A stretch of DNA of 22,408 nucleotides, from IMG/VR virus record IMGVR_UViG_2869970738_000007; one strand, 5' to 3'. This stretch comes from a virus. Lineage: Duplodnaviria; Heunggongvirae; Uroviricota; Caudoviricetes. The notes under the pieces were generated by a model, which saw only the letters and a list, made by a program, of their open reading frames with translations, ran no database searches and was not told the DNA's origin. Positions 10,547-17,434 of the stretch are shown here, piece by piece. A program made the position numbers and the translations under genes. How positions within the stretch are numbered: position 1 is the first letter of the stretch; every line of letters starts with the position of its first letter.

Positions 10547-11524
10547 TCATACTGTTGCAGTGCCACAGCGAGCCCCCCACGTCACCGTATCGCCGGGGTG
10601 GTAGGTTTCACCGGCTCTGAACACACCGCGGTAGAGCATCACCGGCAGGGAAAATGTTTTTTCCGTACGCTGGCCACTGCTCTGCCGGACCACCACAGAG
10701 AACAACCGCTCACCCGTCATGCTGACGTCAATATCCGCCACCCCGTCAACCAGGCATTCCCATCCCCGCATCCCGTGCGTTTTTTCATACGCCCGCCAGA
10801 GTCCGCCCTGGTGTGTGGCATACGTGCCCCGGGGAAAGGATTTTTGAACGTCAATGGCGGGGAGTATTTCCAGAGCCGTGGCATCACGCCCGTCCTGCGG
10901 AGCCGGCAGGGCACTCACCGCATCCAGAACCGCCTTCTGCAGAACATCCGGATCGTAGTCACGACCATCACGCGGAACAGGGATATGGCTTACAGCCTCC
11001 GTCACCATCTGTTCAAGCATCGGACGCACATCATCCGGGGTGAGACTTTTACCGTCCGCCGGCTGCGGAATATTTGCGACCGCATCATTCACCGCCTGCT
11101 TCAGTACTTCCGGATCGTAGTCACGACCATCACGCGGAACAGGAATATGGCTTACAGCCTCTTTCACCATCTGCTCAAGCATCGGACGCACATCATCGGG
11201 GGTGATACTTTTGCCGTCTGCCGGCACCGGTATTTTCGCGACCGCATCATTCACCGCCTGCTTCAGTACTTCCGGATCATAATCGCGACCATCACGCGGT
11301 AGCGGAATGGCCCCCACTGCGTCATCCACCATCGCCTGCAGAACAGGGCTAACCTCATCCACCGTCACATGCTTCTGTAACAGAGCGGACAGGGAAGCCA
11401 GTTTCTCTTCAAACGCTTGTGCCTGCGCGCTCATCTTCTCCTCAAATGTGCGCTGTAAATCCGCCAGCACCGTGGCGAATTCTTCTCCCAGGGCACGAAT
11501 AATGGACAGTTCACGTTCATTCAT
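10547..11524 (-). CDS. Phage structural-module protein of unknown function: N-terminal coiled-coil-like region, 54-aa tandem repeats, about 100-aa C-terminal domain
   Basis: 325 aa; ATG at 11524 overlaps the portal stop (ATGA), so it is translationally coupled. Repeats are IPxPRDGRDYDPEVLKQAVNDAVAxIPxPADGKSxTPDDVRPMLEQMVxEAVSH, two full copies plus one diverged. No family recognised. Confidence 0.6.
   Translation of the reverse strand: MNERELSIIRALGEEFATVLADLQRTFEEKMSAQAQAFEEKLASLSALLQKHVTVDEVSPVLQAMVDDAVGAIPLPRDGRDYDPEVLKQAVNDAVAKIPVPADGKSITPDDVRPMLEQMVKEAVSHIPVPRDGRDYDPEVLKQAVNDAVANIPQPADGKSLTPDDVRPMLEQMVTEAVSHIPVPRDGRDYDPDVLQKAVLDAVSALPAPQDGRDATALEILPAIDVQKSFPRGTYATHQGGLWRAYEKTHGMRGWECLVDGVADIDVSMTGERLFSVVVRQSSGQRTEKTFSLPVMLYRGVFRAGETYHPGDTVTWGARCGTATV
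10860..11308. repeat. Tandem direct repeat, 162-bp unit, about 2.8 copies, inside the 10547..11524 gene
   Basis: The string CCGGATCGTAGTCACGACCATCACGCGGAACAGG recurs at 10948 and 11110 with a third diverged copy at 11272, i.e. period 162 bp; outer limits of the array are approximate. Confidence 0.8.
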
Positions 11525-12784
11525 TTTTTCAGAATCCCCCTGAACATCGCTTTCACCGCATCATGCTCTGTTTCACTGATTGCCTTATTACCGTCAGATG
11601 CGCCGTCAGGCGGTTGCGCTAAAGCCGTTTTCCCGGTCGACGCGAACGGATCCTCACGGGCATCACGACGGGACAGTGCCTCCAGACTGTAGTTCTGCTG
11701 CTGAAGATACAGTGCATCACCGCCGGCCAGGGGCGGCAGGTTCTCCCGTTTACGGGCCTCATTGGGCGTGAGAAGCGTATTTTTCACGGCATCCCCCAGC
11801 GTTTTCATGCGCCGCTCACTGTCCATTCTCAGCAGCGTGGTGACATCAAATTCTGTACTCTCGTTTTCCCCCGTTTCCAGCGCCTCATCCAGTAACAGTT
11901 CAATGGACTCAATCAGCGTCTGCAGGCACTGGGAATAATACTGCTGCTCCAGCGCCTCCACGTTGTCACTGGAAGGCGGTTGTCCCACGCCAATCTTGTA
12001 GGCCGGGACACGGAACACCGAACAGACAATTTCAGCGGTCATCTTCAGTTGTTCCACCGTCTGCGCATCCACCGGTGAAAACGTCGTGGGGTTGTATTTT
12101 GCCCCGTTGCTCAGAATGGCCGTTTTCCCCGCCATTTCTGAAAAAATACGTCGAATTTTCCTGAATATGATGCCCCTGCGTGGCGGTCAGCCCGGCGGCA
12201 TACACCGGCGGCAACCCTATAAGCGGATGAAAAAAACAGTTAAACCGGTCGTGGATCACTTCCCGGGCAGGCACCGTCACCGCCTCAGTGATCCCGCAGT
12301 TCCGGTCCGGCGTGATGCGGTAGAACACTTCGCCGTCATCCGCCACCAGTGGTTCAACCCGGCTCCAGTCCAGAATGCGCAGTTCTTTGATCTGCCCCCG
12401 GGAGTTACGGATTTTCAGCACCACCGTATTGCCGTGACGCAGTTTGGCGTTCAGCCACAGTTCAAAAAACTGGATGCGGTTCTGCTGGGCGTTGGGACGA
12501 CGACAGAGGCGGGCAATATCCCCCCGGCGAGTTTCCCTGCGTATCCCCTGCGCATCCGTCTGCATAAGACGCAGCCGCATTTTGGCGATATCCTGGGATA
12601 TCAGCGAAATGCACGAAAACACCGCATGAAAGGAGAGGACGGCTTCCGGATCGGCTTTCACGCCCTGCTGCCAGGCGCCGGAAAAGGGCTCAGCCACCGC
12701 CTGAAACAGGCTGGTCCAGCCCGCCTCTCTTACGTCACGTCCTGATTTCTGGTTTTTTCGGGTTCGCTGTAAAAGGTTCCACAT
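11521..12784 (-). pseudogene. Phage portal protein (HK97 family), frameshifted
   Basis: Portal-like translation is split over two overlapping frames (12032..12784 and 11521..12135): ...AVLSFHAVFSCISLISQDIAKMRLRL...PNAQQNRIQFFELWLNAKLRHGNTVVLKI... then ...KIGVGQPPSSDNVEALEQQYYSQ...LLTPNEARKRENLPPLAGGDALYLQQQNYSLEAL. ATG at 12784. Confidence 0.8.
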
Positions 12785-12959
12785 TCGCCATGCTCCGCAT
12801 CACGTTTCTTTTTCTGACCTGCCGGACGTCGCACCGTGATGTACTCCGCCTTTCCCAGGCGAACCAGCACCTCCGCGCACGGCTGTGCCACATCACGGAT
12901 ATCCCCGGCCCGGGCATCATGCGTGCCCTGCAGATATCGGATCTTTGCCATAACCTGTT

Positions 12960-12981
12960 ACGGGAGGCGCTCGCCTCCCGT
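12960..12981 (-). other. Perfect 10-bp-stem hairpin (ACGGGAGGCG CT CGCCTCCCGT) just 3' of the capsid gene; no U-run
   Basis: Inverted repeat read directly; could be an mRNA-stabilising or attenuating structure. Function not established. Confidence 0.4.
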
Positions 12982-12995
12982 CCTCCTTATCAGAC

Positions 12996-15709: not shown

Positions 15710-15723
15710 ATCAGCCTCCTGAA

Positions 15724-15747
15724 AATAAAAAAACCGCCGGAGCGGTT
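15724..15747 (-). terminator. Candidate intrinsic terminator directly downstream of the terminase large-subunit gene
   Basis: Hairpin AACCGC-CGGA-GCGGTT at 15732-15747, followed on the minus strand by a T-run (complement of the A-run at 15724-15731). Confidence 0.45.
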
Positions 15748-15772
15748 CGTGATGGTTACAGTGTGAACAGGG

Positions 15773-17434
15773 TTATATGAAAAAAACCGCATATTCTTTC
15801 TTTTTCGGTTCCGGGTTAAGGGACATCAGGGAGACCGCATTGAACAGCGCCATCAGCGGGTCAATTTTTCCCCGTCCACTGGCCTGTTTGGTGATAAGAA
15901 TGGCGTTACCTTTAGGCTCCACCCGGGCATTGCCGACACACCAGGCCATCAGGGGCTGGTCACCATGCACCAGCACCCCTTCAGCCAGTTTGCGCTCGGT
16001 GGTTTTAATGGCCCCGCCCAGTTTCCAGCCCTGGCGTATCCCCACCACAATTCCGTCGGGGATCCCGGCTTCCGCCAGTGAATCCAGAATCTGCCCCACC
16101 CCTGACGGGTCAATACCGATATGGTCCAGTAACTCAGCCTCATGAATGCGACGCACATATTCCGCCACTTCCGCCGTGTCATCCCCGACACGCCGGACAA
16201 TGGTCATATCTCCACAGGCAACAAGATCCTGAAACCGGGACGCCTCGCTCTTCCGTCGGACCACCGCGGTTTCATGCGCCCAGGCATGGCCCCAGCCCAG
16301 CCATTCGCGGGTCTCCCGGTCACGCCCAATCACATACATCCCCAGCAGATCATCCAGCCCTCCGCCGTCAATCCCCACCGTCACCACATCAGCACGACGC
16401 AGGATATCGTCCAGGTTGATACAACGGCCCTGCTCTTCCCAGAAATCAGCCCCCGCCCAGCGGTCAGAGCGCAGGGCAAGACCAATTTCCACATTGGCGT
16501 GTTTTGACATGAACCCCCGGAATGTCTCTTCACCGGCTTCCCGGGCTTTACGGTACTCCCGGTACAGAAAGGCCTCATCCACTGAATAGCCGAGATTCGG
16601 AATGACCATGGCGAGGTTTTCCATCAGCAGGTGAGCCCCGCTTTCCACCATTTCAGGAGGGTGTTCAAATATCACCGGCAGAAAGTGCGGATCATTAATT
16701 TTGCCGTCGCGCACATCCCGGGCGTACTGCAGTTTTTGTCTGAACACCCCGGCGGGCGGTTCATTCGACTGGGTGGTCGTATACACCACAAACCCTTCCG
16801 GGCGGGAGGCAAGCCCGCCGATGGCTTCACGTAACATGTCCTCCGCCTTGTACTGCTTGCCAAACAGCCACAACTCATCAATCAGCGTCCCCACGGACTT
16901 GATACCGGACACCGTATTCGGATCGGCTACCACCACCTTCAGGGTGGTGTCCGTCACCCGGTGGGTGATGGTCCGGATATGTGTCTGCACCTGACAGAGG
17001 TCATCCAGATCATCGTCCCGTCGTACCATATCCCTGGCAGGATTGAAGGCGTTGGCTGCCACCTCCACAGTCGGGGCCAGAATCGTGTAACCCGCCGCCT
17101 GCCGCCAGTTCAGTAACAGCGCCGTCATCATGATCCCGGCGGCCAGTGTGGACTTGCTGTTTTTTTTGGGTATCAGAATGAACACTTCCTTGATATGGCG
17201 GACACCGGTCTGCGCATCGTAGGAGCCAAACAGAGCCGCCACCAGGTCAAACACCCACTGTGCACAGGACTCCCCGAACGTCGGGCTACCCGGTGCATCC
17301 ACAATCCGCAGTTGTTTAAAAATCGCCAGGGCATGTGCGGCCTGGTCCGGATAAATCGGAGCCGGAATAATCGACAGCCCCTTTTTCAGGCGCTCTGCCC
17401 AGTCCGGGCAGGCCGTGCTCCATACAGGTATCAT
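15773..17434 (-). CDS. Phage terminase large subunit (Terminase_1 / COG4626 type)
   Basis: 553 aa; ATG at 17434 overlaps the TerS stop (ATGA). Deviant Walker A ...IPKKNSKSTLAAG..., nuclease-region VTVGIDGGGLDDLLGMYVIGRD, C-terminal ...GRGKIDPLMALFNAV. Confidence 0.9.
   Translation of the reverse strand: MIPVWSTACPDWAERLKKGLSIIPAPIYPDQAAHALAIFKQLRIVDAPGSPTFGESCAQWVFDLVAALFGSYDAQTGVRHIKEVFILIPKKNSKSTLAAGIMMTALLLNWRQAAGYTILAPTVEVAANAFNPARDMVRRDDDLDDLCQVQTHIRTITHRVTDTTLKVVVADPNTVSGIKSVGTLIDELWLFGKQYKAEDMLREAIGGLASRPEGFVVYTTTQSNEPPAGVFRQKLQYARDVRDGKINDPHFLPVIFEHPPEMVESGAHLLMENLAMVIPNLGYSVDEAFLYREYRKAREAGEETFRGFMSKHANVEIGLALRSDRWAGADFWEEQGRCINLDDILRRADVVTVGIDGGGLDDLLGMYVIGRDRETREWLGWGHAWAHETAVVRRKSEASRFQDLVACGDMTIVRRVGDDTAEVAEYVRRIHEAELLDHIGIDPSGVGQILDSLAEAGIPDGIVVGIRQGWKLGGAIKTTERKLAEGVLVHGDQPLMAWCVGNARVEPKGNAILITKQASGRGKIDPLMALFNAVSLMSLNPEPKKKEYAVFFI

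Follow-up and report, generated by a model that had tools for sequence, protein, structure and literature searches.

The head genes of bacteriophage HK97 follow the canonical order of TerL, portal, protease and major capsid protein (MCP), and a putative terminator is annotated immediately ahead of the protease gene (locus L136 of this survey, 3309-3335). BP-4795-like prophages are described as those most commonly predicted in Escherichia coli strains that make Shiga toxin (STEC), and BP-4795 itself as a siphovirus (PMC6986202), classified by the International Committee on Taxonomy of Viruses (ICTV) as Marienburgvirus BP4795. Fusions of capsid protein and protease form a recognised class that has been called common in small siphoviruses (PMC9671004). 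Among satellites, the phage-inducible chromosomal islands that form capsids (cf-PICIs) of proteobacteria are arranged as capsid, protease, portal and head connectors, followed by hnh, terS and terL (10.1101/2022.09.08.507074). The subject of the present analysis is the head and packaging module in a 22,408-nucleotide stretch of viral DNA, IMG/VR record IMGVR_UViG_2869970738_000007 (hereafter the window), in which the portal gene lies behind the MCP gene.

This module very probably comes from a lambdoid siphovirus of the BP-4795-like (Marienburgvirus-type) group and has since decayed, its layout being ancestral and fixed in a large HK97-related clade that is spread over the Proteobacteria. It comprises the minus-strand open reading frames (ORFs) between 8997 and 18650, in the order HNH, TerS, TerL, hairpin spacer, protease, MCP, small ORF, portal, repeat protein and connector. 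Gene identities were assigned from Pfam, PHROG and PDB matches together with comparison with HK97 proteins. This comparison confirms both the order (TerL, protease, MCP, portal, then repeat protein and connector) and the identities of TerL, protease, MCP and portal given in a preliminary description of the window. The same layout is present in BP-4795, where ORF53-63 encode HNH, TerS, TerL, a 645-aa 'major capsid protein', a 73-aa ORF, the portal, a second 'portal' equivalent to the repeat protein, Ad1, head closure, gp10 and the tail terminator; the stretch from the 645-aa gene through small ORF and portal to the repeat protein corresponds to ORF56-59. BP-4795-like sequences are collinear with the window from HNH to gp17 at 95.9-98.9% nucleotide identity over 92-99% of positions 8500-18700, and the BP-4795 fusion protein and portal are 98.6% and ~97% identical. 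The features of the module, from the HNH gene onward, are as follows.

18285-18650, minus strand: HNH endonuclease (PF01844, E 3.7e-8; phrog_589)
17431-17994, minus strand: TerS, overlapping TerL by 4 nt (PF03592, E 1.3e-8; phrog_641)
15773-17434, minus strand: TerL, 553 aa, intact (PF03354 and PF20441)
15731-15748, minus strand: terminator-like hairpin and T-run in the TerL-protease spacer, read from the sequence
15158-15709, minus strand: 5' part of the protease-MCP fusion gene, S78 protease domain and linker (PF04586 in an intact relative)
14390-15157, plus strand: IS1, 768 bp, with insA at 14445-14720 and insB at 14765-15142 (98.6% identical to annotated IS1A)
12996-14389, minus strand: 3' part of the protease-MCP fusion gene, delta/scaffold-like coiled coil and MCP of predicted HK97 fold (PF05065, phrog_617)
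12996-14357, minus strand: MCP ORF of 453 aa from the internal ATG at 14357 (PF05065)
12730-12951, minus strand: small ORF, 73 aa (phrog_829, E 9e-39)
11521-12784, minus strand: portal pseudogene in two ORFs, 12032-12784 (250 aa) and 11521-12135 (204 aa) (PF04860)
10547-11524, minus strand: repeat protein (second half of phrog_2271)
10141-10467, minus strand: Ad1 connector, a gp6-like head-tail adaptor (PF05135; phrog_40)
9781-10131, minus strand: head closure protein (PF05521, E 1.9e-17)
9338-9784, minus strand: HK97 gp10-family protein (PF04883)
8997-9341, minus strand: tail completion protein of the gp17 family, the final gene still intact ahead of the major tail gene (PF11367)

The order is identical in every informative related locus examined, far beyond chance. 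It recurs in 116 phage records with 80% or more of the fusion protein covered, for the most part from phages that convert to Stx1a or Stx2c, and the kinship extends to Stx2a-converting phages and O157-type lambdoid prophages with the same gene order. At least 80% of the 10-kb module is present at 96-99% identity in 393 of 5426 complete E. coli genomes. In relatives that are 96-99% identical, lysis genes precede the head genes, and these lead straight into a complete set of lambda-like tail genes (major tail, tape measure, gpJ). At greater distance, Burkholderia phage vB_SBP39, with an MCP 39% identical, and Moraxella phage Mcat9, with a portal 45% identical, keep the order of the window. A species-level genome collection contributed 48 loci. 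In 44 of them MCP and portal were both detected and MCP identity was 37% or higher, and every one of the 44 has TerL-protease-MCP-portal-connector. They represent alpha-, beta- and gammaproteobacteria (Enterobacterales, Pseudomonadales, Rhizobiales, Rhodobacterales and Burkholderiales), with one Tissierellaceae metagenome-assembled genome; the two most distant loci (L050 and L052, MCP at most 27% identical) run TerL-portal-MCP. From IMG/VR, the 80 best portal relatives (45-100% identical) were sampled. The MCP gene stands immediately before the portal in each of the 75 contigs that extend upstream of the portal, and all 70 contigs that reach TerL have TerL-protease-MCP-portal.

Across named phages, portal identity is bimodal, at 41% or more in those with the non-canonical order and 29% or less in those with the canonical one (Agrobacterium phage Rivra at 28.5%, HK97). 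Portal and MCP diverge in parallel, with paired identities such as 76/60, 53/48 and 40/41%. The portal-after-capsid order is a fixed trait of an old clade and not the product of scrambling. The suggestion of the preliminary description that the arrangement might be lineage-specific rather than random is fully supported by the identical order of intact relatives, which include BP-4795, Stx1a/Stx2c phages, vB_SBP39, Mcat9 and ~120 further loci.

The preliminary description treated protease and MCP as separate genes joined, like the rest of the module, by short junctions. In fact, the junction between them is 800 bp long and holds an IS1, and comparison with IS-free relatives reveals that natively the two form a single 1938-bp gene of 645 aa, split in the window by a 1-bp deletion and the IS1. 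The native fusion gene could be reconstructed from the window by taking out the IS1 and repairing the deletion. Along the 645 residues the domain order is S78 protease, linker, a coiled-coil delta-like segment and an HK97-family capsid domain. The window segments 15311-15709 and 15153-15380 have no Pfam match on their own and correspond to the S78 domain of an intact relative, which matches PF04586 (Peptidase_S78) with 34.7 bits against a cut-off of 21. This protease domain is 29% identical to HK97 gp4, and its GLSVGF motif aligns with GMSVGF of gp4. The MCP of the window matches PF05065 (E 7.6e-15, 55.5 bits against a cut-off of 24.2). A coiled coil is suggested for the ~100-aa segment ahead of the MCP fold by its sequence and a weak Osmo_CC match.

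Two lesions separate the parts of this gene. The 1-bp deletion at fusion-gene nucleotide 320 (~15390) shifts the frame three codons ahead of the predicted catalytic serine in GLSVGF, leaving the S78 domain of the window frameshifted. The IS1 lies in the linker on the opposite strand, 32 nt upstream of the ATG with which the 453-aa ORF begins. A 9-bp target duplication, CAACAACCG, flanks it without mismatch at 14381-14389 and 15158-15166. In all, 777 bp have been inserted, and removal of the IS1 leaves the window collinear with its relatives in blocks 98.3-99.7% identical. Protease and MCP are fused in 31 of 42 genome loci and 68 of 72 IMG/VR loci in which both domains could be scored, and the fusion architecture (PF04586 with PF05065, ~645 aa) is kept at 73-78% identity across many enterobacterial genera.

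The ORF pair at 11521-12784, taken in the preliminary description as one portal gene, remains a portal, since PF04860 matches both halves, but it is divided into two ORFs by a 101-bp deletion. This frameshifting deletion follows gene nucleotide 652 (~12133/12132) and lies between imperfect short repeats; positions 160-191 of the profile are missing. The intact 454-aa portal of a relative matches PF04860 with E 1.6e-80, and the portal matches the PDB portals 9lbn (E 3.6e-30) and 8cez (E 5.4e-20). What had escaped the preliminary description was the native fusion, the inserted IS1 and the fact that three genes (protease-MCP, portal and repeat protein) are pseudogenes. The small ORF at 12730-12951 always separates MCP from portal, with a 55-nt overlap onto the annotated portal start; it occupies the matching slot in BP-4795 (ORF57), vB_SBP39 and Mcat9.

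Behind the portal, the repeat protein is coupled to it through an ATGA overlap at 11521-11524. In the window it contains 2.3 copies of a 162-bp (54-aa) unit at 10929-11299, one unit fewer than in an otherwise intact O157:H16 relative (L001), and a 1-bp deletion at ~10579, near the 3' end, frameshifts its C-terminus. The number of units varies among relatives, with more in L001 and in strain 2015C-3121 (L002) and a protein of up to ~550 aa in L014. A CBM_5_12 match to the C-terminus is weak and stays under the cut-off at 20.8 bits. No repeat protein is present in the Burkholderia and Moraxella members. Portal and repeat protein are separate and ATGA-coupled in 68 related loci and fused in frame in nine (L061, L062, L076 and L077 among them), and the fusions imply that the repeat protein acts at the portal. 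These natural fusions stem from an extra G upstream. Programmed -1 frameshifting by slippage on the A6 run at the junction (CTG AAA AAA TGA) was considered as a conserved mechanism and rejected, because the A-run is not kept in other genera (ACC AAA TGA, CCC ATGA and others). The model phrog_2271 is itself an 859-aa portal-repeat fusion. A fused reference model of this kind probably explains why the Prokaryotic Genome Annotation Pipeline (PGAP) labels the portal as 'frameshifted' where both ORFs are intact (L001 10870-13454, and L002).

At the other end of the block, the gap between TerL and protease is exactly 63 nt, contains no portal and carries a terminator-like hairpin, all as first described. 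Here, a GAACCGC-TCCG-GCGGTTT hairpin and T-run (15748-15731) are followed by AGGAGG-N5-GTG, the start of the fusion gene. A hairpin ACCCGC..GCGGGT with a T-run, followed by CGTTTCNGGAGG, is kept from Enterobacterales to Pseudomonadales (loci L005-L049), although the flanking proteins are only ~50% identical. Covariation is weak, with double changes in two of seven pairs and a stem mostly conserved in sequence, so that the predicted structure is supported by conservation and energy and not by covariation. The hairpin seems to travel with the protease-MCP block. Within the clade, the mosaic gene is TerL. TerL of vB_SBP39 (L004 353-1942) is 64.5% identical to HK97 gp2, whereas the E. coli TerL is 23% identical to it (E 3.5e-9). 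In several loci TerL is only 25-29% identical to either query while the MCP is 42-55% identical and the head block unchanged. Because TerL varies while the protease-MCP-portal block stays constant, a recombination joint can be placed between TerL and protease; the co-inherited unit is protease-MCP-small ORF-portal, followed in many members by the repeat protein. In L001 (15666-17327), TerL carries an internal stop, an indication that many such prophages are defective, in different genes.

The fusion gene raises the possibility of a second product. In bacteriophage λ, an internal in-frame start in C/Nu3 yields a second, nested product. In the window, the ATG at 14357 is preceded by a Shine-Dalgarno (SD)-like TAAGGA at 14366-14371. 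Across related loci L005-L135, an internal SD (defined as AGGA, GGAG or GAGG ~4-13 nt upstream of the internal start) together with a start codon is present at 57 of 64 distinct fused junctions, as compared with 6.7% at other codons of the same genes. The residues encoded at the internal SD vary (KG, KE, EEG, QEG, KEG, KD), which argues that it is the nucleotide motif and not the peptide that is conserved. At the fusion point there is an invariant methionine, the one with which the unfused MCP of the Burkholderia phage begins, and in unfused members the protease stop codon overlaps the SD (TAAGGA). Together these features suggest that fused genes may make two nested products, a protease-MCP polyprotein and free MCP. 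In a fuller version, held to be slightly better than an even bet, translation from the upstream start (GTG in the window) would yield the protease-delta-MCP polyprotein, bringing the protease covalently into the prohead, and translation from the internal SD and ATG the bulk of free MCP, the two initiation sites setting the protease:MCP ratio; the portal-after-capsid order and the hairpin could belong to the same expression design. The likeness to λ C/Nu3 lies in protease, scaffold and capsid functions sharing one reading frame. The two differ in that the delta-domain MCP here has the protease on its N-terminal side, and free MCP would be the product of the internal start.

In its components, the clade is plainly akin to HK97. 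An HK97-family portal, an S78 protease and a PF05065 MCP with a delta-like segment are each present, the MCP belongs to the same Pfam family, and identities to HK97 are 27% for portal (to gp3), 29% for protease, 23% for TerL, 44% for head closure (to gp7) and 73% for gp10. Both also have a terminator-like element directly upstream of the protease gene. The clade differs from HK97 in having the portal after the MCP instead of before the protease, in its protease-MCP fusion and in the small ORF and the repeat-protein gene, both additional, on either side of the portal. The order TerL-portal-protease-MCP, which HK97 itself has, occurs neither in the window nor in any member of the clade. Phages vB_SBP39 and Mcat9 share TerS-TerL-protease-MCP-small ORF-portal-connector with it (MCP 39%, portals 41-45% identical), but have separate protease and MCP genes and no repeat protein, and the TerL of vB_SBP39 is of HK97 type.

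As it stands, the module of the window is a dead prophage remnant, unable to function owing to an IS1 insertion, deletions, frameshifts and a truncated tail. It does not amount to a complete functional phage: disruptions affect the genes for protease-MCP, portal and repeat protein, and an IS1-like copy (7827-8596) cuts off the major tail gene at 8596, with a read-through ORF (8575-9000) that terminates in IS1 end sequence. Compared with BP-4795, this copy is defective through the IS1, a 1-bp deletion, the 101-bp deletion, the loss of one repeat unit and the truncation of the tail. With four IS1 and one IS2 in 22 kb, and one IS1 exactly between the protease and MCP segments, it could be supposed that a local IS1-mediated or decay-linked rearrangement scrambled a formerly canonical HK97-type module. 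The chance of this is practically nil. The IS1 retains an intact 9-bp duplication and its removal restores a continuous 1938-bp gene collinear with IS-free relatives; the identical order in IS-free phages and prophages already refutes a local rearrangement, and descent of all relatives from the window locus is impossible given 37-80% protein divergence across phyla. The mosaic nature of lambdoid prophages, and the demonstrable exchange of TerL within the clade, would be in keeping with a recent chimera in which TerS-TerL-protease-MCP from one prophage was joined, after the MCP gene, to portal-connector-tail from another. Such an origin is nevertheless very improbable, since the MCP-small ORF-portal adjacency is invariant across the clade, portal and MCP diverge in parallel, and the mosaic joint falls between TerL and protease, not between MCP and portal.

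A likeness also exists to cf-PICIs of the EcCIEDL933 type: they too contain HNH, TerS, TerL, protease, capsid, portal and connectors, the portal gene standing behind those for capsid and protease, and the window lacks complete tail genes. That the order reflects the organisation of a capsid-forming satellite is nonetheless extremely improbable. In cf-PICIs the terminase block (hnh-terS-terL) comes after the head genes and tail genes are absent, whereas the relatives of the window are complete tailed phages with full tail modules, and the tail of the window itself was cut by an IS1 inside the major tail gene. Head genes without a tail beside int, alpA and a replication module would be expected of a cf-PICI; no int/alpA/rep block is adjacent here, the window being flanked by dcm-vsr-yedA and, at the opposite end, by lysis genes, and the IS-free relatives are tailed.

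The reading preferred here is that of an inherited BP-4795-like layout, which in its native form would run HNH, TerS, TerL, hairpin, protease::MCP, small ORF, portal, repeat protein, Ad1, head closure, gp10, gp17 and tail. The 'swap of two adjacent blocks' proposed in the preliminary description holds formally with respect to HK97; it was not an event at this locus and is unrelated to the local IS1 copies. Instead, what sets the layout apart from that of HK97 is an ancient event in which the hairpin-protease-MCP block and the portal block traded places. By homology, the intact module would be expected to use HNH-assisted terminase cutting and to package DNA through a dodecameric HK97-family portal. 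Assembly of the MCP would be guided by its N-terminal delta-like segment, and the S78 protease would then remove itself along with the N-terminal delta/scaffold segment of the MCP. In this clade the protease would be covalently joined to the MCP N-terminus, with the retained internal ribosome-binding site and start possibly giving free MCP as well. Several points weigh against this reading. The surveyed loci are phylogenetically related and are not independent samples, so that binomial P values overstate their independence, and the case for free MCP from the internal start in BP-4795-type phages is one of sequence conservation only. In addition, a literature search returned no paper that explicitly discusses the order or the fusion in Stx phages, so that the statement that the order is already known rests on public annotated genomes.

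The DNA around the module bears similar marks of insertion. The four IS1 copies lie at 2331-3106, 7827-8596, 14390-15157 and 22078-22408, one of them a variant of 91% identity, and the IS2 (~547-1820) interrupts a porin gene of the OmpC/OmpF/PhoE family with fragments at 1-528 and 1745-2299. Positions 3736-7699 hold drpB, yedJ, dcm, vsr and yedA. The host chromosome is heavily IS-laden and decaying. The window matches CP026795.1, an IS-rich chromosome on which the exact TerL sequence of the window is present; within the collection of complete E. coli genomes, no record spans at least 80% of the whole window. A YlcI/YnfO (DUF3950) gene (18632-18892, plus strand) and a gene for a TonB C-terminal domain (19024-19365, minus strand) sit in the stretch from the lysis cassette to the HNH gene and look like moron-type cargo common to the relatives. 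In strain 2015C-3121, an ompC porin gene (L002 2950-4104) is situated within the prophage tail module.

The gene order is already known, being visible in public annotations from the BP-4795 genome record onward. As the standard arrangement in one of the commonest prophage types of pathogenic E. coli, and in many proteobacterial prophages, it is of little discovery value. The sole modestly new point is the possible nested expression of the fused protease-MCP gene, a reading that was not found in searchable papers. For annotation, pipelines and readers that expect TerL-portal-protease-MCP should not call this layout rearranged, and PGAP flags for a 'frameshifted portal' in this family are probably often artefacts of the fused reference model. 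The annotated 645-aa 'major capsid protein' is a protease-MCP fusion that, judging from its conserved internal start, probably also yields free MCP. If free MCP is indeed made from the internal start, it would bear on how protease dosage is set in capsid assembly.

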